64,000 nt of DNA from Tubiluchus corallicola (taxonomy: Eukaryota > Animalia > Priapulida): contig JAQGDQ010000697.1 of assembly GCA_030141605.1 (NCBI GenBank), positions 1-64,000 on the forward strand, in the 5' to 3' direction. This document shows positions 22,089 through 63,499 of the stretch, piece by piece. The translations under genes were made by a program, and so were the position numbers. Positions within the stretch are counted from its first letter, which is position 1; each line of letters begins with the position of its first letter. Below the pieces are notes generated by a model, which saw nothing but the letters and a program-made list of their open reading frames with translations, had not been told where the DNA came from and searched no databases.

Positions 22089-22505
22089 TAGTAGGAAGCA
22101 GCACCTCTAAAGAAGACCGAAGAGAAGAAAATGGATGTGGCGGAGATGAGGATGTTGAGATGGATGGTGGGAGTAACAAGAAGGGATAAAATCAGGAATA
22201 GTAATATTAGAGGAACAGTGAAAGTAGTGGAAGCCTCGAAAAAGATACAAGAGGCAAGATTGAGATGGTATGGGCACCTGAAAAGAAGAGTCGGTGAAGA
22301 TCATGTGGGAAGGGAGGTCATGGAAATGGAAGTGCTGAGAAATAGAAGAAGAGGACGGCCCAAGCTGAGATGGTATGAATGTATTAACGGAGACCTTAGA
22401 CAGAAGAACATAAATGAAGAGATGGCCAACAACAGGAATGCATGGAGAAGACTCATTCACAATGGCGACCCCGCATAGGGAAAAGCTGGGAAGAAGAAGA
22501 AGAAG
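22089..22505 (+). mobile_element. 5'-truncated RTE-clade LINE
   Basis: EMRMLRW...RLRWYGH...RGRPKLRW C-terminus, (GAA)n tail, 18-bp TSD ACTAGTAAGAAATCCCTG at 22071 and 22506. Confidence 0.9.
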
Positions 22506-23099
22506 ACTAGTAAGAAATCCCTGGCCCTATGCTGGTTTAAACATAGATCTTTATTAAGAGTCATTTAACTTCGGCTGCTTACACAAATCTTGTTTATAAT
22601 AAAATCGTTCTGGAAAATAGTTAAACTTAAGACACCGGCTGTGAATTTGATAACCAAAATTAACTCTCCAAAGGCTGTGACAAAATAAAAAATTGCTTTA
22701 TCCAGGTTGTCACTGGATGTAGTTGCAGCCAGTAAAATTAAAAAAATACAGACGCAGACAAAGGTCTGAAATGATAACCTGATACATGTGCAATGATGCT
22801 ACGTATAAAAACTTAAGTATGCTCATAATATGACTACATTGTGCAAGACGATTTCGCCACGATAATTTTGAATTAAATTTGCTCAAAATTTTTTTCGACT
22901 GTGACACTCAAAAACTACATTACTGTTCCCTAGACTTCTCAACTATGTCAAATGTTACTGTTACTAAGGTCTAGTGGACCTGGCTGTGATCTGATGGAGA
23001 CCTCTCAACTATGTCAACTGTTACTGTTACTAAGATATAGAAGACCTCGCAGCTATTTGATGTAGACATTTCAATTATGTCAATTGTTACTAAGATCTA

Positions 23100-23289: not shown

Positions 23290-23341
23290 ATGAGGTCATA
23301 CGATACACTGCTACTTTTGATTATTTTCCTTTTCATTAACT
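23290..23341 (+). CDS. Gene B exon 1, signal peptide
   Basis: AAAATGAGG start; MRSYDTLLLLIIFLFIN; GTAAGT donor. Confidence 0.85.
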
Positions 23342-25719: not shown

Positions 25720-25750
<31 letters not shown>

Positions 25751-37700: not shown

Positions 37701-40700
37701 CTCTCTTCCTCATAATTATCTTCCTCTTTGCTTTCTTTAAAAAGATCTGGTGCTGCAAACGTAAGTAAGCCAGCAAGTATCTTTTCGTACTTAACGTTAT
37801 TCTCATTAAGGTGCGACTCCATGTGTATGTAATGCATGATCCATAATGCTTATACAGCAGTTTGTATTTAAACATGTAGAAGTGTTTCCATGTGTACATA
37901 ATCCGTTATGAGTGGTCCTTCGTTCGAATACGTATCATGCAGCAATACTCAGACGGGAAACTGCTGTTGCTTAGGCGATTATAGCGAGTTTTATAGTTTT
38001 CGGCGACCATCTTGCTTGCGAAGTCTAAGGGCCCTAACCATAACAAGGTTATTGATGGTCTTGCCTCAACAACTTGCGAACTTGCGGCAGATTTGATGCG
38101 TCAACTGTTTCACTATTAAGTGAATTCCAATAGTCCACAACACGAGAAGAGAACAAATGAGCTCTGATATTAGTGCGAGACATTGTACAAATAATTTAGA
38201 TTTATGTCCACGTAAATCATGTAGTGTTCTAGAAACATCGTCCCTATGCAAAATAGAACTACCACTAATGACTTTATAACAGTTAATAAGATCTATAGTA
38301 TCATGGCGTTGTTCAAGTGATGATACAGAGTCAGGTTGAATATCAGAGGCTTGACTAATACATCTCCATTGAATTCTTTCTAAAGCATTTTTAAGAATGA
38401 CATACTGCAGTGACCAAACGACGCACGCATATTCAAATATTAGTCTAACTACAGCTTTATAAAGAGGTACAATAACTTTTGCACTACATGATGAAATACA
38501 GCATTTTGTCATTCCAATACGTCTATTGACCTGAGAAATAAGATGCTCAATATGTGAATTCCGCACTGCATTTACTACATTTGAGGGACATTGACCAGTT
38601 GTTACACCACTGCTCAATTTCAGACATGTCAGCTTGTAAGATCTCTTGATCATTCCTAATTGGATGGCAATGGTTTTATATCATCAACAAACAGTGGTAT
38701 ACGTGTGTCAGGGAAATATCATTGAAAATAAGAAAACAATAAGGTTCCGACAAAGTCCCTTGAGGAATGCTACTGGTTACATTTCTCCAGGAAGTGGTTA
38801 CACCATTTAAAACTACTCTATGCTTTCTGTGTGTTAGAAAATAATGAAAACATTGGAGTAGTTTCCCTCTTATACGTGCAAATGCCATTTTTAACATAAG
38901 ATGACGAAAAGGAATGGAATCGAATGCTTTTCTAAAATCAATATATATAATATCAGTTGATGAGAGACAAGGGTCATCAAAGAACTGGTACCAGTCATTT
39001 AGGCATTCAAGAAGATTTGTTGGTGTGGAGTGTTGCGATAATGAACCGTGTTGATTATTATTGAATTGGCCAGAAGATTTTAGTATATCGTCCCACAAAA
39101 GAGATTCAAGACATTTAGAGACAACAGATGATAGAGAAATAGGGCGTAATTCGTCACATGTCAAGTTGGTACAAGGTTTTTTAGGGTTAGGGGTAACGTT
39201 ACAATCTAACCAGTCTTGAGGGACTATACCACACTCCAAGGATTTGCAAAAAAGAAGAAAAGGAGGTAATGAGAGTTGTAAGGCACATGATTTCAGTAGA
39301 AAACCATGAACATCATTCCCAGTAATTTCAACGTAGAAGATACTGTCGTTATTCCAAGACAAAGGAGTTGATAAGGGACCATCATCGGGTTCATTGGTGA
39401 AGAAAGAAGCAAAAGAATCATTAATAGTCTTAGCAACTGGGATAGGATCTGAAGTGACATGTTGATGATCATTAACAGTTATAGTATGATTAGGAGGTTT
39501 AAGGAAATGTTTACTAGAACTGTAAAACACTACCATTCTTACTTAGTCGCTCCTCACATCGCAAGCGAACAGAATATAAAGCTGATTTCAATTCCTGCGA
39601 GGAGCGAGTATATTCAACATGAACACTGTTAAGATTAGAATAGTTCCATTTTGACCATAATATGCTTCTACGAGTTCTTGCTTTAGTAACAATGGGATCT
39701 TTTAGCCAAGGAGAAGATATAAGTTTGCACTGTTTAGCAGAAGTTCCTTTTAAGGAAATTGGTCAAATGCTTCATTATATGCAGACAAAAAGTAATTCTA
39801 ACAAGTAATAATGTCACAATTGTGAAACCAAGCTGTCCAGTAAGTATTTTCAAAAAAATTTTAGTAACGAAATTAATTTAGTACGATTAAAGTCATGCCA
39901 GGGTCTAGTTACAAGTTGTTGGTAATTGTGCATCAAAACAAATGCTAGTGTCATGATCACTGGTTGAAAATCCATGCCAAGGAGAGCAATTCGTGATGCA
40001 TTCAGGACAATTAGTTAAGACTAATTATAGGCAACTGTTTTTATGTGTTAAGCATCTAACTGCAGTTTTATCACTAAATGATGATATGTGCCATATTGTT
40101 CTCTTCCCTGCTAAATGATGTCCACCCTAAACCTGTGCATTCTTTTCCATCTAATCGTACAATAATAAGCTAATGACTGAGCTGTAAGCTTAAATTTCGA
40201 CAGAGACATTGTTTCCAAAAGTTAATGCTTACAGTTTTCACGAATAGCGAGACAAAAAATGGTGGAAAGAGTGCCGCGAGCTTTGTTAATGCGCATAGCG
40301 TTTACGGACGCATGGAAACAGTTAATACGCATCATGCATTATGCCACTGATCATGCATTACGTACACATGGAGTCATAATTTAAGAACGTAAAGTATAGT
40401 CAAACTTCTTTAATTATATACCACGTACTTTGGAACTGCAAAAAAGTTGGCATTACTGCGAGTTTGACATTGTAATGAGATGCGTTAATACCTATATGCC
40501 TATGCAAATGTATAGACATTTTATGTTGCTAAAATTTGGGTATCAAGCGAGTTTGGTATTGTAAGAGATGGTGTTATAACGAGGTTTGACTGCATGTATT
40601 TCTCTTTAAGTTGAAACTTATTTAATTATTTTTTACCTTTTGCCAGAAACTATTTTAACCTTTTCTATTAGGAAACCTTTTTTAGCAAACATTGTAACAT

Positions 40701-40793
40701 TTTGTTTTAGGAGTAAAAGCAGTGCATCGAATTTCTCTCTGTCTCCCTCCCTCCCTCCCTCTGTGCTCTAGCTCTCTGTCTCTTCTCTCTTCA

Positions 40794-40862
<69 letters not shown>

Positions 40863-42833
40863 CTCTCTCTCCCTCTCCATCTATCCTCTCTCTCTCTCTT
40901 TTGCTCTCTCTATCTATCTCTCTCTCTCTCTCTCTCCCTCTATCCTCTCTCTCTCTCCCTCTCCCTCTTTCTGTCTCTCCCTGTCTCCTCCCACCCCTTT
41001 CCTTTAACTTAGAGCTATAACTTCAAGTTTCTAATTTTTTTTACAGCAAAGACAACTGGTGAGACTGGACAAACACATGAGTAAGTACTTTATTTATTGA
41101 GATTCATAATAACTCTCATTCTTTCGGCAGGTTTTATTAAGCTATTAGGATATAAAATGGTAATTTTTTGGGTTGCTCACTTGCGAATAACCCTAGAAAA
41201 CCCATTCATTTCTCCGTGATGCCGGGCTTGTCATTCATGTAACACAGAACTTTACCATTTACTCATTCTGAAGCAAACAATGTGTGCACAAAAATTTGGT
41301 TTCTATGGTAACTGTACTCAGTAATCTGTTAACAGCACACTTAGCTTTTTACTGTGATTTCCCGAGCAGTAGCTAATGACGATAAAGAATTTTCGTGCAT
41401 TATTACTATCATTTCAAGAACATAAACTAAAGACTATGTAGAACGTTTGCATATTATTGATCATCAGCTTGTATTTTGTGGCAAGGTGTGGGTAGCATGT
41501 GATGGTTGTTTTATATTGTGACATCATAGTAGAACAGTATTCAGAAAAATTGTTGAATAGTTTAAAAAAACCGATCCTACGGCATCCAAAGTATAGCATT
41601 TTATTAAAGCTTGCGCATTTTACAAATACTTGCAAGCAAAGCATACGTGCGTGCATGTGTGCATGTGTGCAGCAAGCAAATCACCCATGCTTCGCACTAG
41701 ATGTATCTAGACCTGTACTTTTCTGTACTTTTACCTCTAACAGTGTGTAGGGAGTTCCTTCAGTGATGCGAGATGCATGTGACTGCAGAAACCGAGCTGT
41801 TCAAAGGCCAATTTTTAAACGACGTTAAAAATCAATCAGTTTAATGCAATGTAATTTACCTGGGTTTCTATTACGTGGGATGTGAAGATCTCGTCTCCTA
41901 CAACCGAAAGTCCCTTATATCTGAGTACCTTATATACTAAGATTTTTACACAGGAAAAACATTACAAAAAATCGGGGCCGGTGTTGGTGGACTTTTATAA
42001 TCGATTACCTTATACCGGAGGTTGACTGCACTCAGACTTCGCTGTATGAATTTAAATAACGTGTTTAAAAAGTGATAAAAGTTATTTTAAACATCAAAGC
42101 AGAATTTTAGCATTTTAGCTGACAAAGCAGCAACACGCTGTGTTTATGTATCTGAATTTATTATGTGCAAATAAAGTTGTTCCTGTTTTATGTGTTTAAT
42201 TCGTATTTTAACATCCGGTTACTGAAACTTTACAATTCAACATTATAACATACGAGCCTAACTGCCTATTATAGAATCATTTTTTATATTCATATGTATT
42301 TTGATTGGAACAAAAGCTGCATCAATTTAAAATGAACAAATGGAGGAATTCATGAAAGGCCTGCATAATGTAGGGGGTTGTGGTAGGACAGGAATCTAAT
42401 TAATTGATGTTGAACTACTTAGAAGTGTTTTAAGCATGCTTCACTGTAAACGAAACCTTGCAGTGAAAATATTGAAGCAGGTCGTAATCCGTTCAGTCAC
42501 AGTATTGCTGAACTACGGTTGCTAAGCACAGACTGTCACAGTATTGCTGAACTACGGTTGCTAAGCACAGACTGTGATCACTCAAAAGCATGTATAACAT
42601 ACTTAAGATCAGTAGACGGGCAAAGTCCATTAAAGTCCGATTGTTTTGAATTCTAACATTTTTTTGTTTTCAGGTTAAGCACTTATGATGATGCTGTCTC
42701 GTCTACTCACACTGTTAGAAATTCTGCTCGTACAGAAAAAGGGAAGCCAGATTATGACAATGCAACAATAATCTACACTGAACCAATGAACAAACCTGCT
42801 GTGCACGTGTATGAAACTATTGAACAGAGATAA
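23290..42833 (+). CDS. Gene B: type I membrane IgSF receptor, 865 aa (signal peptide, 7 Ig-like domains, TM, Tyr-motif tail); Kirre/nephrin-like N-terminal domains, Fasciclin-III-like membrane-proximal domains
   Basis: join 23290-23341, 24403-24726, 26893-27027, 29593-29760, 31913-32173, 33320-33670, 35103-35459, 36086-36409, 36634-36957, 37653-37760, 41047-41080, 42674-42833 = 2598 nt, open from ATG to TAA, all introns GT-AG. Confidence 0.88.
24403..24726 (+). CDS. Gene B exon 2, V-like Ig domain D1
   Basis: C-W-DGVYYC motif; TTTTTTGCAG acceptor, GTAAGT donor. Confidence 0.9.
26893..27027 (+). CDS. Gene B exon 3, first half of D2
   Basis: VLSMTLNGTDVTNEQEVTVKADDTSEEFKCGAQGGNLKPVISWFV; TACAG/GTATGT. 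Confidence 0.85.
27190..27825 (+). mobile_element. Helentron-associated (HINE/DINE-like) non-autonomous element in gene B intron 3
   Basis: Sub-terminal IR TCTCTGCAAAG / CTTTGGCAGAGA, TGTT microsatellite after the 5' IR, degenerate 3' stem-loop, T-rich insertion site. Confidence 0.5.
29593..29760 (+). CDS. Gene B exon 4, second half of D2
   Basis: DSEDITNSAVQDDDDISTLNHAFKPGEDGDNGAVLQCRVSVPELELKFINKTLNVE; TTCAG/GTAAGT. Confidence 0.85.
31913..32173 (+). CDS. Gene B exon 5, I-set Ig domain D3
   Basis: Canonical C...W...D.G.Y.C.A.N..G motif; TGCAG/GTAAGT. Confidence 0.9.
33320..33670 (+). CDS. Gene B exon 6, atypical Ig-like D4
   Basis: 351 nt, phase 1/1, four Cys, FCSKP/WMW/DCF motifs. Confidence 0.88.
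35103..35459 (+). CDS. Gene B exon 7, atypical Ig-like D5
   Basis: 357 nt, phase 1/1, four Cys, clearly homologous to D4. Confidence 0.88.
36086..36409 (+). CDS. Gene B exon 8, cysteine-free Ig-like D6
   Basis: 324 nt, FESLP/WTW/YEDRF/YILYVEN; GGTAG acceptor, GTACGT donor. Confidence 0.8.
36634..36957 (+). CDS. Gene B exon 9, atypical Ig-like D7
   Basis: 324 nt, FCSVP/WEW/RFYAE/TCF/DSRTYTFVVNN; CGCAG/GTAGGT. Confidence 0.85.
37130..37381 (-). mobile_element. Second copy of probable solo LTR
   Basis: Homologous to 20584-20832; TG...CA ends; near-TSD CGTA/CTTA. Confidence 0.5.
37653..37760 (+). CDS. Gene B exon 10, transmembrane helix
   Basis: RKTNWAMICGIIIGTLALFLIIIFLFAFFKKIWCCK; TTTAG/GTAAGT; not in the ORF track on this strand. 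Confidence 0.88.
38066..40050 (-). mobile_element. Decayed CR1/L2-like LINE ORF2 (reverse transcriptase) in gene B intron 10
   Basis: RPISLSSVVSKCLE, YIDFRKAFDSIP, IPQGT, LYKAVVRLIFEYACVVWS motifs; frameshifted; 5' boundary approximate. Confidence 0.88.
40397..40592. mobile_element. Possible Tc1/pogo-type MITE
   Basis: Degenerate TIRs TAGTCAAACTTC / GAGGTTTGACTG with TA on the left. Confidence 0.35.
40733..41000. repeat. (CT)n microsatellite/polypyrimidine tract
   Basis: Pure CT run about 40797-40859 with degenerate flanks; ends about 45 nt before the exon 11 acceptor. Confidence 0.95.
41047..41080 (+). CDS. Gene B exon 11, 34-nt cytoplasmic micro-exon
   Basis: T-run plus ACAG acceptor, GTAAGT donor; PKTTGETGQTH; phase 1 to 2, exactly what joins exon 10 to the exon 12 frame. 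Confidence 0.75.
42495..42575. repeat. 39-bp tandem duplication
   Basis: GTCACAGTATTGCTGAACTACGGTTGCTAAGCACAGACT twice. Confidence 0.85.
42674..42833 (+). CDS. Gene B exon 12, Tyr-containing tail and stop
   Basis: TTTTCAG acceptor; ELSTYDDAVSSTHTVRNSARTEKGKPDYDNATIIYTEPMNKPAVHVYETIEQR*. Confidence 0.8.
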
Positions 42834-42955: not shown

Positions 42956-43460
42956 TTCTTCTTCTTCTTCTTCTTCCCAGCTTTTCCCTATTCGGGGTCA
43001 CCGTTGTGAATGAGTCTTCTCCACGCATTCCTGTTGTTGACCATCTCTTCATTTATGTCTTCCCTTCCCACATGATCTTCACCGACTCTTCTTTTCAGGT
43101 GTCCATACCATCGCAATCTTGCGAGGCTTCCACTACTTTTACTGTTCCTCTGATATTATTATTTCTAATTTTATCTCTTCTTTTTATTCCCACCATCCAT
43201 CTCAACATCCTCATCTCCACCACACCCATTTTCTTCTCTTCGGTCTTCTTTAGAGAAGCTGCTTCCAGCCCATAGATCAGAGTGGGTCTGACCACTTCAT
43301 TGTGGACTTTCCCTTTAGGTCTCACCGACTCATTCATAGAAGGTTTTGGCGCAGTTTTTACAGGCGGTTGCCCTTCCTGACCCTAACCCTCCGTATTTAT
43401 CCGGGCTTGGGACCGGCACTGAGTTGGGCTGGCTTGCCCCCTCCCCCCAGTGGCTAGGTT
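42956..43460 (-). mobile_element. Internally deleted (bipartite) RTE element just downstream of the gene B stop
   Basis: (GAA)n tail and EMRMLRW segment homologous to 22089-22505; GC-rich head with GCCGGTCCCAAGCCCGGATAAA; TSD ATTTATTATCGA(T/G)AAC at 42940 and 43461. Confidence 0.85.
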
Positions 43461-44602
43461 ATTTATTATCGAGAACTATTGCTTGCTATTCTAGCATCAG
43501 ATTTACACTATAAACTCTGACATGATCTGCACCAAGACTGATCATTGGTTTCTCGTTCACTTTCAAACTTGGCCGACTCTTGATTGATTCTGACCTCTTA
43601 GCTAGTTCATAAATGATCCACTCTATATAGAACCTAGCCTTCTCATCCACATTTGAGTGACTCTTGATTATTGCCTCATGGCTCGCACTTGCCCACGATC
43701 CAGAATGGAGTTCTGTTTCTTGCTCAATTGATTCTTGACCATGGCCTCCAAACCGATTTACAAATGATCCACTCTATATAGAACATAGCCTTCTCATTCT
43801 CTGTCATGGCGTCCTGGTTTACATTTAATCCGCTTTCCGTCGCTGTATGAAGTGTAAGCCAATCGTAGGTCTACTCGATTACTTTGATGTATAACAAAAA
43901 CAATAAACAACAACAACGACAGATAAAATCCCCTAAGTTAACTTCTAATGTCATGTGCAAAAATATTCATCCCGGTTCCTTTAGACTGACCTGTAACTGC
44001 TGCCCCATTCTTTCCATTCGCCACTTGGTCCATTCTTTCAGTCTAAAAAAACTGCTTACATGAACCAGACTCGGTTTTTCCGAACAGAAAGTTTTTAAAT
44101 TGACAAGTTACGAGTTCTATATAAGCTTACTATGAGTAAAAGCACAAGCTTCTAATGACTTTACAGGTAATTAAATAAGTAAATAATATCGTTGAAATTC
44201 TAGTCATAATTCAGCTTCCATTTTGTTCGCCGTGTACGCACAATTTAATTGCTTAAATTTTATTTGACCAAAGTTTTATTATAAAATTTATTAATTAAAG
44301 TTGTAATTATGTGTATGTAAATTTGTGAGAAATTAGATAAAAACCGGTAGAATAGACTTGATTAGTGCAATATTTTATCCCAGTAAGAGTGACAGAAGAT
44401 GGTGTTAACGTCTTATTGCAATTTAATGAATGGATTATGCGAGCTAGCCCCAAAAGCCTAATTGGTACATGTTCAATTCAAGTCTTTCAGCTCTAGTATG
44501 CTGCAGGTGCTCTTACTAAAATGTCTTACTATTGATTTTACGTTCCTTTACTTTATGTAAGACAAAAATAGGTTTATTCAACCTAATGTAACTTGTTGCT
44601 AG

Positions 44603-45009
44603 TAGGGGTGAGCATTCTCTACCAGAAAGCGAATTCAAATCGAACTGAATTTGTGGCTTTCAAATTCGAATCAAACCGAACTTCAGTGTTTCGAATTCGA
44701 GCCGAATTCGAATTGAGATCGAAAGATTTTCGAACAAGTTTTCGAACCACCAGCAAAAATTAGTCTTACAAAGATCATGCATATCACTAGATTTTGTTCT
44801 GCAATAAAACGACTAGTAATTTCTTTAAAATTATGTGCAGAAATCACAGCTAAATTATGCTAGTTGCATGATGTTTCAATCGTTTTAGTGATAAAGAATA
44901 TGTCTGATTGAAGTGCTGAATTATTTGAATCTATAGTTTTGGATTTGAATCGAGTTCGAACTAAAAAAACTCGTTTGAATCGAATTCGAGCATTCGATGC
45001 TCAGCCCTA
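44603..45009 (+). mobile_element. hAT-superfamily MITE, 407 bp
   Basis: TIRs TAGGGGTGAGCAT / ATGCTCAGCCCTA; perfect 8-bp TSD GTTGCTAG at 44595 and 45010. Confidence 0.9.
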
Positions 45010-48627: not shown

Positions 48628-50133
48628 AAAAAATTATAGCATTAAAAAAGTCTCATCTAAATCTTCCCAGAATCTATGCAATATTTTTCTTTTTTTAGCT
48701 TTAATTTTTCTGTAATTTCTAAAGTGATGGAAATAACCCAGTTTCCCGGTGGGCCAGTCCGATACTATATCACAGAAAAACTATAGAAACTACACAACTT
48801 GAAACTGTAAGCATTGTAACAGGTGCAGTTAGAGGTACTAATCACGAAATTATTTAATTATAATGAATGCAAGTGAGAAACATTATAATCTCGTCAAAAA
48901 TCACAGTAAGGAGAAATCGTCACTGTGTATGTGGTTGGCAAGCTGAAGATGCTAGGCAACATTTCATAGCATGCAATCCCTCAAGGTCACCAACTCTCTG
49001 TAGGTTTGCTAATAAATGGGTTTGACAGGCTTGCAGAAGGTGATAACATTTTGATAAGTAACGTAATTGAATTTATTGAGTGAAGCAGAATGATTAGTGA
49101 TTACTAAAATGGCTAATGCTGTCTAATGCTGTATATAAATTTATATACAAGTTGAACTAACGCTGTTTGTAAATTAGACATATATTTCAATTTGTGTAGT
49201 TTACCAAAGATTTATACTAATATGACAAACTGAGAAAAATATTATTACTGTAATTTCAATAATGTTTTTATGCATATCAACAGTTCAAACAGCTTTAATT
49301 TAGCTTGCCTGCTGTTTCTTAGACCATTGAACTGTAACAAATATGTGGAAAATGTTGTTACAATAAAGTTGAATTTTTTTAATGAAAAGGTTTTAATCCT
49401 CTGGCGCTTGATGCCGCCAACGTACCGCTGATGAGAAAAACGTAACAAATTTCGTACTTGAATTACAGTACGATTTGGCATGCTGAGTTGATAAATTCTA
49501 CGATTTCCCTTATTGCTTTTAATGGAAAGTGCAAAACGTGGAAAATAGCAGACTACAAATCACCACGCTTCGATTTTAAAGTATTTTACTAATAAAAATC
49601 GATTTTAACTATATGCGCCCGCGTATGCAATACTGTACGTTTTTGCACAAGTAAGCCAATCATTTAAAATTATTATTGTTTTAGTTGCACATTTCAAAAT
49701 ATGGATTTGTAACTCTTTTGTAATTTATTGTCCACTTCAGCATGTAACTTTACTTTACAATTTGCGTTATCATCTTATAATTATATGCAGCAAATCTAGG
49801 AAAAATCAAATATTCTTGTACACCTTCAGAGTTTGTTCCGGGTGCTTGGGCAACTGATCAACTCTCTCTCTCTCTCTCTAGAAGACCTCGTTGTTATTTG
49901 ATGTAGACCTCTCGACTATGTCAACTGTTACTGTTACTAAGATCTAGAAGGCCTCACTGCTATTTGATGTAAACCTGGCTATTCTTCGAGTTTGTAGTGA
50001 AGTCTTGCGTGGGTGTGATGGGGTCTTAGAATGTAATTATAATATTATAATCACAAGGTTTTTATTATTTTAGCAACAAATACACTTGATGTCATCTTAA
50101 AGAGGTATTAGAAAACCTGCTTGAATCTACGAA

Positions 50134-50185
50134 ATGAGGTCATACGATACACTGCTGTATTTGAGTCTTTTCATGTTTGTTTCTT
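50134..50185 (+). CDS. Gene C exon 1, signal peptide MRSYDTLLYLSLFMFVS
   Basis: 52 nt, homologous to the other leaders, GTAAGT donor. Confidence 0.82.
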
Positions 50186-53100
50186 GTAAGTAAAACATTT
50201 AAAGAATAAAAAGTACTTTGGGTTTGTAGTAATGCAAGCAGTAATAAAAGTACTTTGAGTTTGTAGTAATGCAAGCACTAATAAAAGTACTTTGGGTTTG
50301 TAGTAATGCAAGCACTAATAAAAGTACTTTGGGTTTGTAGTAATGCAAGCAGTAATAAAAGTACTTTGAGTTTGTAGTAATGCATGCACTAATAAAAGTA
50401 CTTTGAGTTTGTAGTAATGCAAGCACTAATAAAAATACTTTGGGTTTGTAGTAATGCAAGCAGTAATAAAAGTACTTTGAGTATGTAGTAATGCAAGCAG
50501 TAATAAAAGTACTTTGGGTTTGTAGTAATGCAAGCAGTAATAAAAGTACTTTGAGTTTGTAGTAATGCAAGCAGTAATAAAAGTACTTTGAGTTTGTAGT
50601 AATGCAAGCAGTAATAAAAGTACTTTGAGTTTGTAGTAATGCAAGCACTAATAAAAGTACTTTGAGTATGTAGTAATGCAAGCAGTAATAATAGTACTTT
50701 GGGTGCATAGTAATGCAAGCAGTAATAAAAGTACTTTGAGTTTGTAGTAATGCAAGCATTAATAAAAGTACTTTGAGTATGTAGTAATGCAAGCAGTAAT
50801 AAAAGTACTTTGGGTGCATAGTAATGCAAGCAGTAATAAAAGTACTTTGAGTATGTAGTAATGCAAGCAGTAATAAAAGTACTTTGAGTATGTAGTAATG
50901 CAAGCAGTAATAAAAGTACTTTGAGTTTGTAGTCATGCAAGCACTAATAAAAGTACTTTGAGTTTGTAGTAATGCAAGCAGTAATAAAAGTACTTAGAGT
51001 TTGTAGTAATGCAAGCAGAAATAAATGTACTTTGAGTTTGTAGTAATGCAAGCAGTAATAAAAGTACTTTGAGTTTGTAGTAATGCAAGCAGAAATAAAA
51101 GTACTTTGAGTTTGTAGTAATGCAAGCAGTAATAAAAGTACTTTGAGTTTGTAGTAATGCAAGCAGTAATAAAAGTACTTTGAGTTTGTAGTAATGCAAG
51201 CAGAAATAAAAGTACTTTGAGTTTGTAGTAATGCAAGCAGTAATAAAAGTACTTTGGGTTTGTAGTAATGCAAGCAGTAATAAAAGTACTTTGGGTTTTA
51301 GTAATGCAAGCAGTAATAAAAGTACTTTGAGTTTGTAGTAATGCAAGCAGTAATAAAAGTACTTTGGGTTTGTAGTAATGCAAGCAGTAATAAAAGTACT
51401 TTGAGTTTGTAGTAATGCAAGCAGAAATAAAAGTACTTTGAGTTTGTAGTAATGCAAGCACTAATAAAAGTACTTTGAGTATGTAGTAATGCAAGCAGTA
51501 ATAAAAGTACTTTGGGTGCATAGTAATTCAAGCAGTAATAAAAGTACTTTGAGTTTGTAGTAATGCAAGCATTAATAAAAGTACTTTGGGTGCATAGTAA
51601 TGCAAGCAGTAATAAAAGTACTTTGAGTATGTAGTAATGCAAGCACTAATAAAAGTACTTTGAGTATGTAGTAATGCAAGCAGTAATAAAAGTACTTTGG
51701 GTGCATAGTAATGCAAGCAGTAATAAAAGTACTTTGAGTATGTAGTAATGCAAGCAGTAATAAAAGTACTTTGAGTATGTAGTAATGCAAGCACTAATAA
51801 AAGTACTTTGAGTTTGTAGTAATGCAAGCAGAAATAAAAGTACTTTGAGTTTGTAGTAATGCAAGCAGTAATAAAAGTACTTTGGGTTTGTAGTAATGCA
51901 AGCAGTAATAAAAGTACTTTGGGTTTTAGTAATGCAAGCAGTAATAAAAGTACTTTGAGTTTGTAGTAATGCAAGCGGTAATAAAAGTACTTTGAGTTTG
52001 TAGTAATGCAAGCACTAATAAAAGTACTTTAGGTTTGTAGTAATGCCAGCACTAATAAAAGTACTTTGAGTTTGTAGTAATGCAAGCAGTAATAAAAGTA
52101 CTTTCAGTTTGTAGTAATGCAAGCAGTAATAAAAGTACTTTGAGTTTGTAGTAATGAAAGCAGTAATAAAAGTACTTTGAGTTTGTAGTAATGCAAGCAG
52201 TAATAAAAGTACTTTCAGTTTGTAGTAATGCAAGCAGTAATAAAAGTACTTTGAGTTTGTAGTAATGCAAGCAGTAATAAAAGTACTTTGAGTTTGTAGT
52301 AATGAAAGCAGTAATAAAAGTACTTTGAGTTTGTAGTAATGCAAGCAGTAATAAAAGTACTTTGGGTTTGTAGTAATGCAAGCAGTAATAAAAGTACTTT
52401 GGGTTTTAGTAATGCAAGCAGTAATAAAAGTACTTTGAGTTTGTAGTAATGCAAGCAGTAATAAAAGTACTTAGGGTTTGTAGTAATGAAAGCAGTAATA
52501 AAAGTACTTTGAGTTTGTAGTAATGCCAGCACTAATAAAAGTACTTTGGGTTTGTAGTAATGCCAGCACTAATAAAAGTACTTTGAGTTTGTAGTAATGC
52601 AAGCAGTAATAAAAGTACTTTGAGTTTGTAGTAATGAAAGCACTAATAAAAGTACTTTGAGTTTGTAGTAATGCAAGCAGTAATAAAAGTACTTTGAGTT
52701 TGTAGTAATGCAAGCAGTAATAAAACTAAGTTCATTATTATAAATATGCAGTTTACAAAATGAAATGTGTCATGACTGTGTGTTCGTAATTTGCTTTTTA
52801 TTACAGTGGTTACAAGCTGGTCTCACTACCATTTCCAGTAGGCACTTTTGGTGCAACCCTTTCTCTTCGTAATACTTCTAATGTTTTCAGCCATTGCTTT
52901 CAGCTTGGCAACTTTTTGTTTTTTTCTTTTATCTATTTCTCTGGATCGACTCCATATTTCCTTCTTAGCTACATCGCTTGTGACATGCACTCATTTAATT
53001 CAATAAGTTTATTGACATGATCGTTATATGTATATAATGTTTTATGTTATATAGATGCAAACAAGTATATAATTCAATTTTATTATTTTTGATTAGTGAT

Positions 53101-56100
53101 CGTCAGCTATAGTTTTTGGCTATAGGTTATAAAAGGCTGCAGATGGCACTAAACAAGTACTCCTTTAGTAACCTGTCATTTGCCTGCTGCTTCTTGAGTT
53201 AGAACTTAAAGTACTTAGAGATACATAGTAGTATTGGTTCTAAAAGTTACCACCAGGTTAGAATGATTATAACAGGTTGGCCGGATTCTTATTTCTAGAC
53301 AAGCAGATCATATCTTTTTTAGTTCAGGCAAATGTTTTACATGGTCAACAAAAATCTGAAAATTCATTTGTAGGCCTGTTGGTAATGGGACCAAAAACTT
53401 TCTTATTAAGATTTTGCTATAGCAAAACTTTCTGTTTTCATTGAGTTATTTATTTATTTATTTTCCGCCAATTTAACGCTTAGTAACTCCTAAGTCTTGC
53501 AAGCTAGGGTCACCGAACTCGCAGGGTTGATACACAACTGTATAGCAACTGCTGACCAATGGTCAAGGGGGAAGGACAGTGGGTGTTGGTCAATTTTTCC
53601 TTTATGATTCAACTCCGCTAGGGCTTTCGTTTTTTTCCAAATTTTTTTTCACAAGTATTTGGGTATTGTGGGGTAGATGTGCACCTGGGGTTTTAAAAAG
53701 CTGGTAAGATTTGGGGTCCCCCAATTTGTGACCTTTTACACGCTGAGTGCTAGGGACACAAAACTCACAGGGTACACTCTCTGGCAAAAGTTATATACGT
53801 ATACGCGTGACCTGAGTCGCTGGGTCAAAGGTCACGGAGTGGTCGAGTCTTCGTTTATTTCTCTTTAGAATGCATAATTTTTGAGCTAGGGCGACAATAT
53901 TTGGCATGTGGTTAAGTGGAGCCAAGTTGTTGGATATGGCAAAATATGGGTAATTTGGAGGGGTGAAAAATTTTCCACTAGGGGGCAAAAACCGAAAAAT
54001 GGGGGTCGTGAACAGAAATGCATCGAGTGTCTATGAATACTACCATGTAGAACATCAAATAAAAGGTCTTGATGAGGCGAATCGAATGGTGTCAATTACA
54101 GTGGGAATCCTTAACCTGTGACCCAGTTAGGGGCAAAATAGGGGTCGAAGAGACAAATGCTTCCATGGTCTACCAAAAGCAGGTTGTTGTTATCAAATGA
54201 AAGGCCTCAATGAGACAAACTGAATGACTTAAGTTATGCCAAGGTTGTTGACCTTTGACCCGTGGGTGATGGGCTGAAGAGTTAAATGCTGAGGCTTCAT
54301 TGTGAAATGCACTTTCCATGTATTCAAGCAATTCAATAAAAGAAAAGAGCATTTTTTAAAAAAGGCTGTCATCTCTTCATTTTTAAAGCTGAATTTTACA
54401 ACTATTGTTTGCAAAATCTTCAGTTTCTGACCACTTCAGAAACATTGTTAGCTGGTTTATTTCCTTTCTATAACGAAAAGTCCTGTTATATAATTCATGT
54501 TTCCACAGAAATGTTCTTATTAGATTAAATACAGGCATTAGGTGAACCTTGCCTTAGTCACTTACCTTATCTTAGGTGTGACTGTCTCTAACTTAATCAC
54601 GTTTGTCAGCTTGAGACTTGATGTCAACATGAGCTTCAATACATATAAGTTAAAATTTCCAAACCTGTGATTACTTGGTTAAACGCTTGATTTGCAGGTG
54701 TGCAGGATGAAACGCAAGCAACACCATTTGAACAAGAACCCGAGGATGTTGTTGCTCTTCCTGGAGATGATGTTGTGCTAACATGTGTGATAGAGAGCAA
54801 TTATGTCCACAATGGTCACGGTGTTCTCTGGTTTCTTAATGGCAATCTGCAAGACATAGATGGTGAAAACTTCACGTATCTTGACATTGATGCTCCTACC
54901 AGTGGAGACTGGAGTATAAACGTTGTGAATATAAATGTAAATCAACGGGATGGTTCATATCTCTGCCAGTATAGGCCATTTCAAGGCCAGGTGGAAAACG
55001 CACGTGAAGTAGAAGTTACTGTTGTTGGTAAGTATGTAAGACATTCTTAGTTACTTTTAATACTTTTGCTGAGTATTTTATTCAGAGCTTCTGATCTTTT
55101 GTGATCATGGAAAATGGACAGAATTCACATGGGCAACTGAAACAGCTGCGAAAAACAGAATTAGTCTGATTTAGTTTTCATTATTTATTCACTTAATTGT
55201 TGCTTAATTAATTCATTCATACTTGACTTAGTGTGTATAATATAGTAATTTTTGTGTAGAAACGTTATCTCTGACGTGTTACTAGGAAATATTTGAAATT
55301 TTTGTTTATAAACTAATTTAAAGTCGTAATTATAATAGTTCCAGCAACTATCAGTATGCTGCTGAATGATGTGCTACATGTGAAACCCTCGATTACAGTT
55401 GGAGCAGAAGACATCTCTAATCAGCTCAAATGTGAAGCCATAAGCAACTGCAAAGTTCTGCCAACCATAAGTTGGTTTATTGGTAATATCTTTCTAATTA
55501 TTATATACTTTAATGATCTATGTAACTTATTCTGTTTTGATATAAATTAATCATATAATATCATCATCATCATCATCATCACCACCTGACTAAGTTACTG
55601 CTTACATCAACACACACGCCATGCCAGCTTTTATCATATCCTTGTCACCAGCACCACCACTACTACAGTAGCCCTTACTTAAACTATATTAGAATATTTT
55701 TAAATAGATTATCGTTGACATAAAGGTAATATTAAGTGTACATTAGGTGCATTAAATCAAAGACCTATATATATGTCACATATTTTCTTGTTATCATCAG
55801 GTTATAATTTATATTACATGCAGGTTCAGCTCCTGTCAACTCTCGTTCAGAAACTATGCTGGATCTAAACACCAATTTTACTAATGTTGTGAGCACAATG
55901 GATGGTTATTCATTTAAACCTGAAGATAATGGAAAGCAGCTGACCTGTCAAGTTTTTATACATGACATTTTGTCAAAACAGTTTATTAACAGGACACTAA
56001 ATGTACAATGTAAGTTAAATTTTTAGTAATCTATCTTACTGCTAGATGTGAGTAAAATATTCAGACAGAGTGTCCATGTTACAACAACCACATTAATAAC

Positions 56101-58169
56101 ACGTTTTAAACACTGTGTATTGAAGAAGTGTATGTAGCATGCTGCAAATGACCTTGATGGGTCTGGGTCTTTTAGAATGAAAAAGTGAAGTAAAATTGAA
56201 CAATAAATAAAAGTAACATTAAAATCAAAATTATTGTTAATGATGTTACAAATCCACAATTTTTTAGTTTTGATGCCCAGGCTTTTCCTTTTTTCTTTGA
56301 CTCTCTTTCTCTTTACCCTCTTTCCCTGTATCTCTCCTTCTGTCTTGTCTTGCATTCCTGCTATATTAGGAGATTCGTTTTTGATACAGATATTACATCT
56401 GTTACCGTGAAATTGCCTAACGGAGATGATACTAAGATTACAGTTGGCAGTGGCTTTGAGCTGATTTGTGATGCAAATGGGAACCCAGAACCTTCTTATC
56501 AGTGGAGTGGTCCTAATTTGTCAAGTGGAAACACCGGCAAAAAAGTTACGAAGAAAAATGCGGAATTAGTTGATGGAGGGACATACACTTGTACAGCTAG
56601 GAATGCTGTTGGAGAGAGAAAAGGCAGCTTAACTATAAAAATTGTAAAGGAAGGTGGCAAAGAAGAAAACGGTGATAAAAATGGTGGTGGGGGATCTGGA
56701 GATGAAGATAATGGTGAGTGCATTGATTAAGGACCTAAGAGAATTAACCTTGCTAAAACACAGAAATGGTTGTTAGTTATGTAATAGTTTTGTTTCTGTT
56801 ACCGGAGTGTCGTACATTTTCATTTGCGATTGATGATTGAAAGTACTACTACCAATAATTAGACATGTGCTGGCACCTACATTTAAAATTGTTCATTTTT
56901 GTAGCTTAATTTAAGTTCAATGCAGAGAAAAAGAGTGAGATTGAATTATTTTATATTAATTAATTAATTATGCACATCATATAATCAATAAGCACAACAA
57001 ATTGTTTAACATTAAGTCCGTGCTTATACAATGTTGTAATATTAAGCACACTTGTTGTAATTAATGGTCAATGACATCAGCTGCCCTTTTTCCTAGAATC
57101 AATGTTAACAGCTGCGTCAGGGCAATGACTTCATAGTAAGAGCAATGACCAGCTGCACACAGTTCTTAGAAACTGTTACAGGGCAATGCCTCACTGTGCT
57201 CATTTCCCTATTTCCTGGAAACAGTTATGACCAGATGTGTTCATTTCCCTATTTCCTGGATACAGTAAGGACCAGATGTGCTCATTTCCCTATTTCCGGG
57301 AAACGGTTATGACCAGATGTGCTTACTTCCTAGAAATAACCAAAAACCTGCATCCACTTCTTGGAAACAATCACGCCAGGGCAATGACTCACTGTGCTCT
57401 TTCCTCACTTCTAGGAAACAATTGCGTCAGGGCAATGGCTTCCTAGAAAGGGCAATGACCAGTTGCACAAAGTTCTTAGAAACTGTTACAGGACAATGAC
57501 TCACTGTACTCATTTCCGTGTGTCCTGGATACAGTTATGACCAGTCATGCTTACTTCCTAGAAATAGCCTTTAACACCTGCATCCAGTTCTTGGAAACAG
57601 TCGCATCAGGGCAATGACTCACTTCTAGGAAACACCCTAGCAGCTGCATAGTCCGGCCTATACAGGCAATTAGCAACAAAATGCTCTGACCAATAAGACT
57701 CAAGCTGACCACTGACCAGAACTTGGTTGACAGTATTCCTTTCAGATTATTACAATTTTTTAAATTTTTTTTTAAACAAAGGGAGAATGAATGATGTTAC
57801 GCAAAATATTTCTAAGAATTTTTTGATAAATCATAACCATAATAATATGTTGATAATGCAAAGAATTTTAACCTTGCAATTAAAATTAGCTTCGATGTAT
57901 ATTGATTATTAACGTTGTACTGCATTTTAAGTTTATTGATTCTAGCACTATGCATTTGGGAGTTAACAGGAATTAAATAGTTGAAAATTGAATGCCTAAC
58001 ATCATGATGAAAAACCAGCATAAGGGGTGTAGCTCCTACATCTATGACTTTAGTCACAAGCACTAATGTTCTTTATTTTGTTTCAGGGCAAAATGGTTGC
58101 AATTTTCCGAGAAAGTTCTTGTTTGGACACGTTGTTATTCTCACTGTTATTGTTTATTTTGTTAGATGA
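50134..58169 (+). CDS. Gene C: 3-Ig (V, C2, I) protein with Gly/acidic spacer and predicted GPI-anchor signal, 372 aa
   Basis: join 50134-50185, 54698-55027, 55339-55482, 55824-56009, 56390-56713, 58087-58169 = 1119 nt open frame; same exon layout as exons 1-5 of A/B. An alternative in-frame exon 3 acceptor gives a start at 55345. Confidence 0.85.
50205..52726. repeat. 37-bp minisatellite, about 68 copies, in gene C intron 1
   Basis: Consensus AATAAAAGTACTTTGAGTTTGTAGTAATGCAAGCAGT with interspersed variants. Confidence 0.97.
53403..54449 (+). mobile_element. Helentron-associated (HINE/DINE-like) element in gene C intron 1
   Basis: 5' AAGATTTTGC-tata-GCAAAA, 3' GCAAAATCTT followed by hairpin GTTTCTGA-ccact-TCAGAAAC; GC-richer than the flanks. 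Confidence 0.6.
54698..55027 (+). CDS. Gene C exon 2, V-like Ig D1
   Basis: FEQEPEDV..PGDDVVLTC...W...NQRDGSYLC; TTGCAG/GTAAGT; 330 nt. Confidence 0.9.
55339..55482 (+). CDS. Gene C exon 3, first half of D2
   Basis: LKCEAISNCKVLPTISWFI aligns to FKCGAQGGNLKPVISWFV. Confidence 0.78.
55824..56009 (+). CDS. Gene C exon 4, second half of D2
   Basis: FKPEDNGKQLTCQV...FINRTLNVQ; TGCAG/GTAAGT. Confidence 0.85.
56390..56713 (+). CDS. Gene C exon 5, I-set D3 plus Gly/acidic linker
   Basis: LICDANGNPEPSYQW...DGGTYTCTARNAVG...KNGGGGSGDEDN; TACAG/GTGAGT. Confidence 0.88.
58087..58169 (+). CDS. Gene C terminal exon 6a, GPI-signal-like
   Basis: TTTCAG acceptor; GQNGCNFPRKFLFGHVVILTVIVYFVR*. Confidence 0.78.
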
Positions 58170-58944
58170 GTCAGAATTTATGCTTAAACTTAAATGTATG
58201 TGATTTTAAAACTTTTGCATATTGTGTAAATATTTTTATCATTGTATGGAATATAATCATATAATCAATAAGCACAACAAATTGTTTAACATTAAGTCCG
58301 TGCTTATACAATGTTGTAATATTAAGCACACTTGTTGTAATTAATGGTCAATGACATCAGCTGCCCTTTTTCCTAGAATCAATGTTAACAGCTGCGTCAG
58401 GCCAATGACTTCCTAGAAAGAGCACTGTGCTCATTTCCCTGTTTCCTGGAAACAGTTATGACCAGATGTGCTCATTTCCCTACTTCCTGGATACAGTTAT
58501 GACCAGATGTGCTCATTTCCCTACTTCCTGGATACAGTTATGACCAGATATGCTTACTTTCTAGAAATAACCGAAATCACCTGCATCCACTTCTTGGCTT
58601 GGTTGACAGCATTCCTTTCAGATTATTACAATTTTTCAATTTTTTTAAACAAAGAGTGAACGAATTATGTAAAGTATTTCTAAGAATATTTTGATAAATC
58701 ATAACCATTATACTATGTTGATAATGCAAAAAATTAAGCTTCGATGTATATTGATTATTAATGGTGCACTTGTCCCGGGACCTACATTTTAAGTTTATTG
58801 ATTCTCTATGCATTTGGGAGTTAAGAAGAATTAAATAGTTGAAAATTGAATGCCTAACATCATGATGAAAAACCAGCATAAGGGCTGTAGCTCCTACATC
58901 TATGACTTTAGTCACAAGCACTAACGTTCTTTATTTTGTTTCAG

Positions 58945-59027
58945 AGCAAAATGGTAGCAATTTTCCGAGAAAGTTCTTGTTTGGACACGTTGTTATTCTC
59001 ACTGTTATTGTTTATTTTGTTAGATAA
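58945..59027 (+). CDS. Gene C duplicate terminal exon 6b, GPI-signal-like
   Basis: TTTCAG acceptor; EQNGSNFPRKFLFGHVVILTVIVYFVR*; AATAAA at 59361. Confidence 0.7.
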
Positions 59028-60590: not shown

Positions 60591-62107
60591 TAGTATGACA
60601 TAGTATGTTTATTTAGTATGACTTAAGCATCTGATATGGCGGTCTCATTGATAGTCTTTCTTGTTTCAGTTTAGTTACTGTTACCATCTTTATTATTTCA
60701 ATTTGAAATAATAATAATTCAAATAAACAATCTACACTTTCTACAATCATTACAGCTTTAATTAGACAAAATCAGACAATTAAAAAAAAAATAGGTAAAA
60801 TATTTTCTGGAAAACTTCACATGCAGTTTAATTCCATGTAAAGCTTGATGCTGTTTGACTTCCATCACTAAGAATGCACAAGAGCTATTCAGTATTAAAC
60901 TGCTTCTGCTCTCTGGATGCTCTATTAATAAAATAAGTTCTTTCTTGTTCTTCGTTTTTTTCTCTATTTATCTTGTTTATTCTGTGTACACTTGTTTATC
61001 TGTTTGTTTTAGTTCTCATCTGTTTAGCTGTTTTTTTATTGATTCATTTGTGTCTGACTTAATCGTAACATTTGTGCACATTTCTGACATGTATCTGGAA
61101 GAGAACCGGAAATCTATGCACATATTCAATTTGGCCATAATAATACGGTTCAATATTCCAACGAAGTGAACAAAAATGTGAACCCAAGTGTCAAAAATAA
61201 TGGAATTGTAATTTCAAAAGTGGAAGAAACATGGAAATACGTCTTTATACAGGGTGTGTAGAAATCAGATCTGATGCTATTGGAAATTTTGAAATTTAGT
61301 GAGTAGGTTATTATGTAGTTATATATTTTGATAATATAAGTCACCTTAGAGATAAGCATATATGTAACTCTTGGTTTAGAATATTGTTATTGTAGAATTA
61401 AGGTTTTGTTGAAACTGGCATGCTGTAAAACATTCTAAAATCTGGAAACTGGATTATAATTATATATTATATATTTTTCTAAATGTAAGTAACCCAAAAG
61501 ATAGGCATATTGTTTTACTCTCGGATTAGAATATTGATATTGTGTGAGTCGTCAGAATTAAAATGAACCTGAAATAACAGAAATGATGTTCCAGTTTCTC
61601 CTGGTGATTTCCCACATTGCCTGGAGCAAAAAAGCGAAAAAATAGCAGATGACAAATCGCCGTGCTTGTAAATTCGGATAATACGTCTTGCTTGACAAAA
61701 GTTTTAAAACTGTAAATACAAGAACACAGATTAGAATGTCGTGATAATTATTATGACAAAAGGTTAGTATACTGTTCACATCTTGATTAATATGCTTTTA
61801 GATCATTCCTGTAATAAAGTCGCATGTTACTCACAGACCTCTCAACCATGTCAGCTGTTACTGTTACTAAAACCTAGAAGACCTCGCTGCTATTTCATGT
61901 AGACCTCTCAACTATGCAAATTGTTACTGTTAGTGTTACTAAAATCTAGGAGGCCTCGTTGCTATTTGATGGCTATTCTTCGAGTTTGCAGTGAAGTATT
62001 GTATGGGCGTGATGGCGGTCTTAGAATTTAATTATAATCACAAGGTTTTTATTATTTTAGCAACCAAAACGTAAAGAGACATTAGAAAGCCTGCTTGAAT
62101 CTGCAAA

Positions 62108-62749
62108 ATGAGGTCATACGATACACTGCTGCATTTGATTGTTTTCCTGTTCATTAACTGTAAGTAAAAACAAAAAATTATTTCTTAACGTCAGAAATAA
62201 AACTTCTAATCTGTAGTAATGCAAAGATTAACTAACGTTATTTCCTAGTTTCTCAGAAAAAAAATTTATATATATATATGTAATTATGTATTTATTTATA
62301 ATTATGTATCTATGTATGTGTACTTGGTTATATGGTTCTATTTTTGAAATCAATTCATTCATTACGCATACTAGCCGTAGCAGCTAAATCTAAATTTCTT
62401 ATTTTTAAGTTTGTACTTTTTGCAGATGCATGGTGTGAATCACAATATTTTGAACAAGAACCTGAGGATGTTCCTACTCTTCCTGGAGATGACGTTGTGG
62501 TACAATGTGTAGTAAAAAGCGGGGTTCCACAAGGATATCAGTTTTCTTGGTTTCTTAATGAACAGTTCTTTGATCCAGACGCGGATGATAATTATGATTA
62601 TATTGGCGGTCATCCTCCTAGCATTGGAAACTGGAGTATAAGAATTAAAAATGTAAATGTAAATCAACGTGATGGTTCCTATCACTGCCGAGTGTCAGTT
62701 ATTGGTGAAGGATATGAAGATTCTAGCAAAGGAAAAGTAATTGTTGTTG
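62108..62749 (+). CDS. Gene D (5' part): leader exon 62108-62159 and V-like Ig D1 exon 62426-62749; presumably continues beyond the window
   Basis: MRSYDTLLHLIVFLFIN + YAWCESQYFEQEPEDV...C...W...DGSYHC; GTAAGT, TGCAG, GTAAGA splice sites. Confidence 0.87.
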
Positions 62750-63499
62750 GTAAGATTTTTAATTATCTTTTTTCAGTTTTTTAAATCTGTAATTATACAT
62801 TTGACATTAAGCGTCTCTACAAAAAATGTAATTACATTTACATATCACATGTTCAGATTTGATTTCTATGTATTAGAATCTGAGAGTTTGTAAGTTTAAC
62901 AGAAGAAAGATAAAGTACAAATTGTCACAGTTTTGTAACACAGCACCTGCTGCTATGCTTCTACAGTTGATGATAATGTAGGAGCGGCTGTTGCTTTCTG
63001 CTCTACAGTGTGTATTAGCCCTATGTGCTAAAAAATTCAATTTTTAAATTAGATGCTTCATATGTTAATTTTTGACTCTTTCTTTTTTAATTCTTGTGAT
63101 AAAAGTTAAGTGTGAGTAAGGTTTAATGGTTTATTAACCTGGAAAATGAAATTTATTACTAGTTTAGACAAACGTAATTCACTGCGTTAGCAACAGCATG
63201 CCTACTAGTAGTAAATGCTGACAAGACAATGCTGTCACACTGTATATGGGTCACTTATGTGTACAAGTTGTAGAAGATGAGATAAAGTATGAAATGTCAT
63301 AGAGAGTAGTGACACAATAGGTGCCCTGATGCATATTATTTTTTATTTACCATCTATCACACATTATATGATTTGATAATAAAGATTAGTCCAAGGCCAA
63401 GAGTAGAAATGACCAGTTTTTACCCATATAGAGTAAGAGACAGTGACAGAGGCAAACAACTCCACAGTAGTATTGAGTCAATGGAAAGCTGCCATTATT

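Follow-up and report, generated by a model that had tools for sequence, protein, structure and literature searches.

In gene D of the cluster described here, the loops and one sheet face of the first immunoglobulin-like domain (D1) have diverged faster than the DNA that flanks them, which probably reflects selection for new binding specificities together with the exchange of sequence patches between gene copies. The window, that is, the whole stretch of 64,000 nucleotides of Tubiluchus corallicola DNA that was analysed, has a GC content of about 34% and contains four paralogous immunoglobulin-type cell-surface genes, A to D. All four open with a 52-nt signal-peptide exon that is followed by a D1 exon of 324-330 nt. 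In gene D, the predicted signal-peptide exon lies at 62108-62159 on the forward strand (52 nt, phase 1). Exon 2 occupies 62426-62749 of the same strand (324 nt, AG/GT flanks, phase 1/1, open frame), exactly where the original prediction had placed it, and is the entire D1 exon, intact. It encodes the canonical residues C27, W41, D82, Y85 and C87, and these residues and G83 are invariant across the D1s of all four genes. The end of the window cuts gene D after exon 2, and the remainder of the gene lies outside.

Gene B (23290-42833, forward strand) is complete within the window, with 12 predicted exons, an 865-aa open frame and GT-AG boundaries at 11 of 11 introns. Its predicted order is signal peptide, D1 (exon at 24403-24726, forward strand), a C2-type D2 encoded by two exons, D3, four more Ig-like domains (seven in total), a transmembrane exon (predicted at 37653-37760) and a tail with four tyrosines. 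The D4-D7 region (33320-36957) consists of unusual Ig-like repeats, and D6 has no cysteine. No Pfam match above the cut-off was obtained for D4-D7, nor any Fn3 match on the frames scanned; the best match was to an unnamed protein, P0095, in its last domain (hhalign probability 93%), with titin matching weakly. It is conceivable that these domains resemble domain 3 of Fasciclin III. Gene A (2164-16804, reverse strand) is an inverted recent copy of gene B that runs from exon 1 to D5, with its 3' end outside the window; its D1 exon (15652-15975, reverse strand) is 97.5% identical to that of gene B, and the introns of the pair are 92-95% identical. Gene A also contains a 2.3-kb tandem duplication (1787-4084 and 4066-6363, 99.8% identical), which takes in the 3' portion of the D4 exon, an intron and the entire D5 exon (2164-2520, 4443-4799) and is either very recent or an assembly error. 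Gene C (50134-59027, forward strand) comprises a signal peptide, D1 (exon at 54698-55027, forward strand), D2 in two exons, D3 and either of two copies of a terminal exon, predicted at 58087-58169 or 58945-59027, with a hydrophobic end that, judged by eye, resembles a GPI signal. The two candidate last exons, which lie within a duplicated block, are near-identical: they are distinguished by their first residue and by a Cys/Ser difference at one position.

Several repeats and mobile elements accompany these genes. Units of 60-66 bp are repeated directly upstream of exon 1 in each gene (17007-17568, 22932-23091, 61835-61971 and 49877-49976), with 9.4 copies in A, 2.4 in B and fewer in C and D; these units may modulate promoter activity or favour exchange. 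Intron 1 of gene C holds 68 copies of a 37-bp unit (50209-52725), which resembles the start of intron 1 of A, B and D and so looks like a local expansion. An insertion in intron 1 of gene B (23581-23862) is absent from A and has a frame that, by eye, resembles the start of a LINE endonuclease. Decayed reverse-transcriptase-like retroelement fragments were recognised by eye in the list of open reading frames at 38066-39542 (reverse strand), 22095-22478 (forward strand) and 43095-43382 (reverse strand). A 214-bp near-perfect palindrome lies between genes A and B (19066-19279), and a MITE-like element of 400 bp is present twice in opposite orientation (19486-19885 and 44595-44993).

Divergence of D1 relative to flanking non-coding DNA

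The original prediction held that the D1s of genes B and D share 56 of 108 amino acids. We obtained the same count, with the same residue at 55 of 107 full codons and tyrosine at the split first codon of both, and all of the loop peptides quoted in the prediction match the translations. At the DNA level, the two exons are identical at 240 of 324 positions (74%) without gaps and at 77% with gaps. The differences are concentrated in blocks. Ungapped identity is 42% in codons 30-40 (BC loop and start of strand C, 62515-62547), 45% in codons 44-54 (C' strand and C'D loop, 62557-62589) and 56% in codons 88-96, which lie within the patch formed by strand F, the FG loop and the start of G (codons 84-98, 62677-62721). 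The framework is 94% identical in codons 4-29 and 86% identical in codons 67-87. All three of the variable loops that had been predicted are thus present, and the prediction had missed one further variable patch, the fourth, in the DE loop (codons 60-66, 62605-62625, 67% identical). No such loop excess is seen between A and B, which differ in the loops by two replacements and two silent changes.

We compared these values with the non-coding DNA around the exon. Intron 1 of gene D (62160-62425) is 91-93% identical to A and B at its start, above the 80-85% that had been predicted for the introns, and 81-85% identical at its end. Intron 2, for which the predicted range holds, is homologous over 62750-63258; its identity to A is 82.6% over 483 columns, and its identity to B is 81.6% over 304 columns. 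Homology to B ends after about 310 nt, at 63070. The 5' flank common to all four genes (61835-62107), which includes the 60-66-bp units, is 77-82% identical between gene D and A or B. Over 977 aligned non-coding columns the mean divergence is 0.168. In the worst 33-nt window, divergence reaches 0.36 in non-coding DNA vs 0.58 in the gap-aligned exon, and none of 5000 pseudo-exons drawn by block bootstrap of the non-coding columns reached 0.58. Thus, the prediction that the loops diverge faster than the adjacent introns is borne out, with loops 42-56% identical vs about 83% for the flanking non-coding DNA.

These comparisons bear on the idea that the loops merely tolerate change, that compensating indels and misalignment inflate their divergence, or that gene D is a decaying copy. 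The core omega between B and D is high (0.7-0.97), as relaxed constraint would predict, the BC loop contains a compensated frameshift in the gapped alignment, and the rest of gene D falls beyond the window. However, neutral drift cannot exceed intron divergence, and the gap-aligned exon does so; since the loops exceed every non-coding window, they cannot be put down to relaxed constraint. The four D1 exons all retain an open reading frame, their splice sites and the core residues, which argues against decay. Codons 30-54 are the ambiguously aligned part of the exon, and when they were dropped the tests for selection described below remained significant (p=0.013 and 2e-5 in two gene sets). The non-coding windows and this removal largely refute such an explanation, which we regard as very improbable.

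Probable selection and sequence exchange among the D1 exons

Codon models were fitted to D1 with our own script implementation (F3x4, naive empirical Bayes), and it should be noted that these tests draw on only four D1 sequences, two of which (A and B) are nearly identical. As had been predicted from the divergence of the loops, the standard site tests favoured diversifying selection. The M1a-M2a comparison gave an LRT of 26.1 (p=2e-6) for genes A, B, C and D and of 16.2 (p=3e-4) for A, B and D, with a selected class of omega 12 on 30% of codons and of omega 10.5 on 26% of codons, respectively. The M1a-M2a, M7-M8 and M8a-M8 comparisons were all significant, at p values from 2e-6 to 3e-7 for the four genes and from 3e-4 to 5e-5 for the three, and none of 63 null simulations reached an LRT of 16.2, the maximum being 4.6. 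Multi-nucleotide changes and variation in silent rate are both known to inflate such tests, according to a published account (PMC10336034). When the fast class was given a free rate, omega above 1 was not significant (p=0.27 for A, B and D; p=0.55 for all four), and a two-class model with omega of at most 1 and a class evolving 7.6-12.7-fold faster fitted as well as positive selection. Free multi-nucleotide rates gave p=0.67 for the three genes and p=0.019 for the four. The null fitted in this way requires 17% double and 4% triple events, and changes in the flanking non-coding DNA are not clustered (30 adjacent mismatch pairs vs 27.5 expected), so this null is unrealistic. With double events set at 1-6%, p was 0.002-0.043 for A, B and D and at most 1.2e-4 for all four; at 12%, the test failed for the three genes (p=0.26) and held for the four (p=0.001). 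By the Nei-Gojobori method, pN did not significantly exceed pS in any region of five pairs, and the values for the B-D loops were 0.54 and 0.47. Thus, at the level of the whole domain, little or none of the significance survives when the silent rate may vary or multi-nucleotide rates are left free, and the evidence for omega above 1 mostly disappears.

Fitting each patch separately (genes A, B and D, with regions picked post hoc, after inspection of the data) points to two processes. In the BC patch, dS is about 8 and omega 0.09, and the rate differs from that of the core at p=6e-7. The silent sites vs A and B are saturated here, so that a replaced or out-of-register tract is likely, rather than a run of selected point changes; the gapped alignment suggests a replaced tract or a compensated frameshift. 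In the C'/C'D, DE and FG patches, dS is 0.08-0.25, compared with 0.13-0.15 in the core and 0.19 in the introns (p=0.6-0.9 for the difference), and omega is 49, 2.4 and 10.7, respectively. FG, with an omega of about 11, is the best-supported selected patch: with a free silent rate, its dS is 0.11 and p=0.03, a value that fails correction for four regions. DE and FG together give omega 4.8, dS 0.18 and p=0.04 under a free silent rate, under which C'/C'D alone (dS 0.08, p=0.15) and DE alone (p=0.43) are not significant. Fixing dS at the intron value of 0.19 costs almost no likelihood and yields p=4e-5 for FG, 1e-7 for C'/C'D and 0.017 for DE, while the four patches pooled under a free rate give omega 1.25 and p=0.71. 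Selection on the loops, as predicted, is therefore moderately supported as the driver of replacements in C'/C'D, DE and FG, where replacements are in excess at an intron-level silent divergence, and is not upheld for the BC loop, the predicted 'CDR1'. If this reading holds, one domain has undergone point-wise selection beside tract replacement, and a single dN/dS test on D1 exons, which blends the two, calls for caution.

Exchange between the copies is evident from their sequences. The D1 frameworks of C and B are 75% identical (dS 0.41, 0.17-0.90), vs 38% identity and dS 5.2 (2.8-15) for D2 and D3; among codons that encode the same residue, silent differences occur at 4 of 29 in the D1 framework vs 36 of 65 in D2 and D3 (p=2e-4). 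The 5' flank of gene C is 85-89% identical to those of B and D; identity to D drops to 57-64%, with many gaps, where intron 1 of gene C ends and where its intron 2 begins. With a young D1 framework and 5' flank on an old D2-D3, the front end, from promoter through signal exon to D1, is younger than the gene bodies. Up to about position 62079, in the common 5' flank, gene D sides with C (24 vs 8 sites), and from there on it sides with B (3 vs 12 sites; permutation p=0.007). The original prediction had named intron similarity explained by local conversion tracts as something that would refute it, and this holds in part, as the 5' flank and D1 framework are mosaic.

The same mosaic, with its young framework on old gene bodies, is what would be expected if conversion had homogenised the introns and framework while the loops display their true age, so that selection at most blocks conversion there and a surplus of adaptive replacements need not be assumed. 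In line with this, silent differences between B and D occur at none of 32 same-residue framework codons vs 6 of 21 in the variable regions, the BC loop has its saturated dS, and the two-class model without positive selection fits equally well. A report on red/green opsins (PMC3924837) describes tandem paralogs that undergo conversion except in regions under selection, and the opsin, MHC and plant R-gene patchworks share with D1 a coding patch that is more diverged than the introns. The C'/C'D, DE and FG patches differ from opsin-type divergence peaks in that they also show a replacement excess at intron-level silent divergence. Nor does intron 2 divergence fall clearly with distance from the exon (0.21, 0.11, 0.25, 0.22, 0.11 and 0.14), and a close relative of gene D among the sequencing reads differs from it almost solely by replacements, among the changes listed. 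We consider it unlikely that old loops in young surroundings account for the whole pattern.

That relative came from a comparison of gene D with read contigs from five sequencing runs. At framework position 62473, 11 contigs in X1 and 13 in X3 differ from gene D, so that the family either has more than four genes or is highly allelic; these contigs cannot tell alleles from paralogs, and their summed depth does not equal copy number. X4 yielded a 379-nt contig that aligns gap-free to 62362-62693, where it shows 50 differences; no other contig of this run covers 62521-62650. Counted by hand, silent changes number no more than 2 among the 25 listed for codons 31-66, vs 6.3 expected at the intron kappa of 2.9 (p=0.03), and no more than 4 among the 33 listed for codons 1-75 (p=0.052). 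The list leaves out 62 rows, apparently ones close to contig ends, so both counts may be incomplete. X4 carries the flanks of gene D at about 99%, yet its sole loop-spanning contig is a form that is 15% different and also present in X1 and X3. This form could be an allele of gene D. No X4 contig has gene D's own loops, an absence that proves nothing given low depth and contig collapse. Further loop forms were read by eye, namely VIVHGEGGG (X4) and EFSPFGEKS (X5) after the second cysteine, and GIFPSYKVDW (X4) and the longer DNLVIGRYT (X6) in the BC loop. In X6, which is presumed to be RNA, a 1013-nt contig spans the junction of exons 1 and 2 with intron 1 removed; with 21 differences in 170 aligned letters, it is a spliced family member, a paralog rather than gene D. 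None of the RNA data listed contained gene D itself.

Predicted fold and variable surface of D1

D1 has the features of the immunoglobulin superfamily: the cysteines of the B-F disulfide, the tryptophan of strand C and the D-x-G-x-Y-x-C motif. In Pfam, it scored 32.1 bits against Ig_3 (cut-off 30) and 23.6 bits against V-set, below that family's cut-off of 26. We modelled D1 with AlphaFold from 22 sequences (pLDDT 89.9), replacing a model from four sequences (pLDDT 68), and DSSP assigned strands A, A', B, C, C', D, E, F and G to it, with no C''. The top fold matches from Foldseek and VIA-align are the D1s of Rst, Duf/Kirre, SYG-1, Neph1 and Kirrel3 (Z 14.0-14.3, rmsd 1.8-2.2 for Rst, Duf/Kirre, SYG-1 and Kirrel3), tied within 1 Z unit with I-set domains of contactin, LAR, UNC5 and Robo, and the ESM Atlas returned generic V-set/I-set clusters. 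Thus, the predicted fold of D1 resembles that of Kirrel/SYG-1 D1.

Fifteen codons of A, B and D belong to the fast class with a posterior above 0.8, and 14 of these fall in codons 30-55 or 83-98, which make up 42 of 107 codons. By element, as assigned from the DSSP strand list on which the choice of face rests, these 14 lie in the BC loop, C, C', C'D, F, FG and early G; the other lies in the DE loop, and strands A, B, D and E have none. The three loops had been described as CDR-like, a likeness that the model does not sustain: D1 is not antibody-like, lacks C'' and carries fast sites on the sheet as well as in the loops. An antibody- or TCR-type V domain was rejected on the absence of C'', the V-set score and the inclusion of sheet residues in the variable surface, and split V/J segments were rejected since, in all four genes, a single exon with normal splice sites holds strands A-G. 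A ligand-binding face had also been proposed. The variable sites do map to the GFCC' face that is used by Kirrels, nectins and Dpr/DIPs, and by analogy with these relatives it may bind a ligand here as well; one study (10.1101/462036) reports binding through the GFCC'C'' face in Kirrels, nephrins, nectins and Wirins. A predicted D1 homodimer scored 0.03, which counts neither for nor against homodimerisation.

Relatives and possible roles of the family

A profile built from the four D1s was searched against 1.84 billion representatives and gave 171 matches at E≤0.001, from the best 150 of which 30 were looked up by name. Word-based searches with D1, D5 or a profile of D4-D7 returned no homolog at E≤0.001, which is weak evidence. 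Among the matches listed, the closest to D1-D3 of gene B are the unnamed Logan proteins P0023 (45%) and P0033 (31%), together with four proteins of Priapulus caudatus, XP_014663546.1 and XP_014675978.1 (both CADM3-like), XP_014668769.1 (syg-2-like) and XP_014667037.1 (hemicentin-2-like). The Priapulus proteins, whose names are automatic, have the same V-C2-I order of D1-D2-D3 as the window genes; at 26-30% identity over about 290 aa, they are distant paralogs, not orthologs. P0033 has three Ig domains followed by what appears by eye to be a C1q-like domain and no transmembrane segment, and is a possible soluble member. In a midpoint-rooted tree of 54 rows, the window genes and the Priapulus and Logan proteins form one clade of 16 rows (support 100/98), and an Owenia Kirrel and a barnacle nephrin-like protein fall in a separate supported clade.

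The Kirrel/SYG-1/Rst/Duf (IRM) proteins resemble the window genes in D1 fold, in the D1-C2-I start and in the GFCC' face. Kirrels have five Ig domains, according to 10.1101/462036, vs seven in gene B and three in gene C, and the family in the window is young, multi-copy and fast-changing. Orthology to Kirrel/SYG-1 was rejected on the domain count and on the position of the window genes apart from the Owenia Kirrel. The layout of nectin/Necl or Wirin proteins (Dpr/DIP/IgLON/Lachesin), with three Ig domains and a transmembrane tail or GPI anchor, fits gene C, with its GPI-like end, and does not fit gene B. Hydractinia Alr1 and Alr2 are, like the genes here, clustered IgSF genes with one exon per D1, and PMC8282982 describes for them exon shuffling via conversion as well as diversifying selection that acts on the C/C' side of the first domain. 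Unlike the D1s here, Alr D1 lacks the core Cys/Trp pin, and the membrane-proximal fold of Alr is Fn3-like. Membership in the Alr family was rejected, with core Cys, Trp and Cys present in all four D1s and no Fn3 Pfam match in the D4-D7 frames scanned. Alr is also marked by extreme allelic polymorphism of D1 at one locus; the D1 forms in the read contigs here may be alleles or paralogs.

Vertebrate paired receptors (Siglec-5/14, SIRP, CEACAM) are homogenised in the ligand-binding domain, and the family here likewise joins a similar N-terminal domain and 5' region to different membrane ends. The consensus for an ITIM or ITAM is (I/V/L/S)xYxx(L/V) or paired YxxL/I. Reading the four tyrosines of the gene B tail against it revealed no canonical motif; only the last forms YxxI, with the residue at -2 missing. 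In place of an ITIM/ITAM pair, the prediction is of a transmembrane form with a tyrosine-bearing tail and a GPI-like form.

The genes would encode rod-like cell-surface receptors, with D1 presumably binding a partner through its GFCC' face and top loops. The promoter, signal exon and D1 framework may be kept uniform by conversion or unequal crossing-over, which would occasionally import a whole loop, while selection would retain and add differences on the binding surface. Gene B, with its predicted transmembrane tail, may signal, and gene C, if GPI-anchored as predicted, may serve as a co-receptor or decoy. As the driver, we judge non-self recognition (of microbes, parasites or other individuals) most likely and place about half of our confidence in it, since recent duplication, patchwork and the variety of loops from sample to sample favour it.

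The main alternative is a cell-identity or wiring code like that of Dpr/DIP, Beat/Side or Kirrel proteins, in which paralogs pair with themselves or with partners and diverge for specificity, with no part played by non-self. The nearness of fold and domain order to Kirrel, nectin and Wirin proteins speaks for it, as does gene C, whose three Ig domains and GPI-like end match the layout given for DIPs and IgLONs in 10.1101/462036. On the other hand, the tree separates the window genes from the Kirrel and nephrin rows, and the very recent A/B duplication (introns at 95%), the exchange of patches, the further loops in other samples and the high omega would fit a continuing arms race better than a stable code. 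Such a code is, in our estimation, not especially likely.

Diversifying binding faces on tandem IgSF receptors are already well known in vertebrates and Hydractinia. Our search of the literature on priapulid Ig families and diversified invertebrate IgSF clusters, with most subscription journals outside its coverage, found no such priapulid family, and the accessible part of a review of wiring receptors (PMC10084454) does not mention priapulids. A more far-reaching and doubtful proposition is that of a priapulid self/non-self complex of a dozen or more genes with divergent alleles, in which an exchangeable promoter-signal-D1 cassette is set on signalling transmembrane, GPI and perhaps soluble C1q bodies. 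The X4 loop form noted above, which could be an allele of gene D, hints at such a complex. If true, such a complex would give each worm its own recognition repertoire and would represent an Alr- or MHC-like system on a Kirrel-type scaffold in an early-branching ecdysozoan. If the main reading holds, priapulids, an ecdysozoan lineage that has been little studied, would have in this family a concrete candidate for recognition in immunity or of self and non-self.
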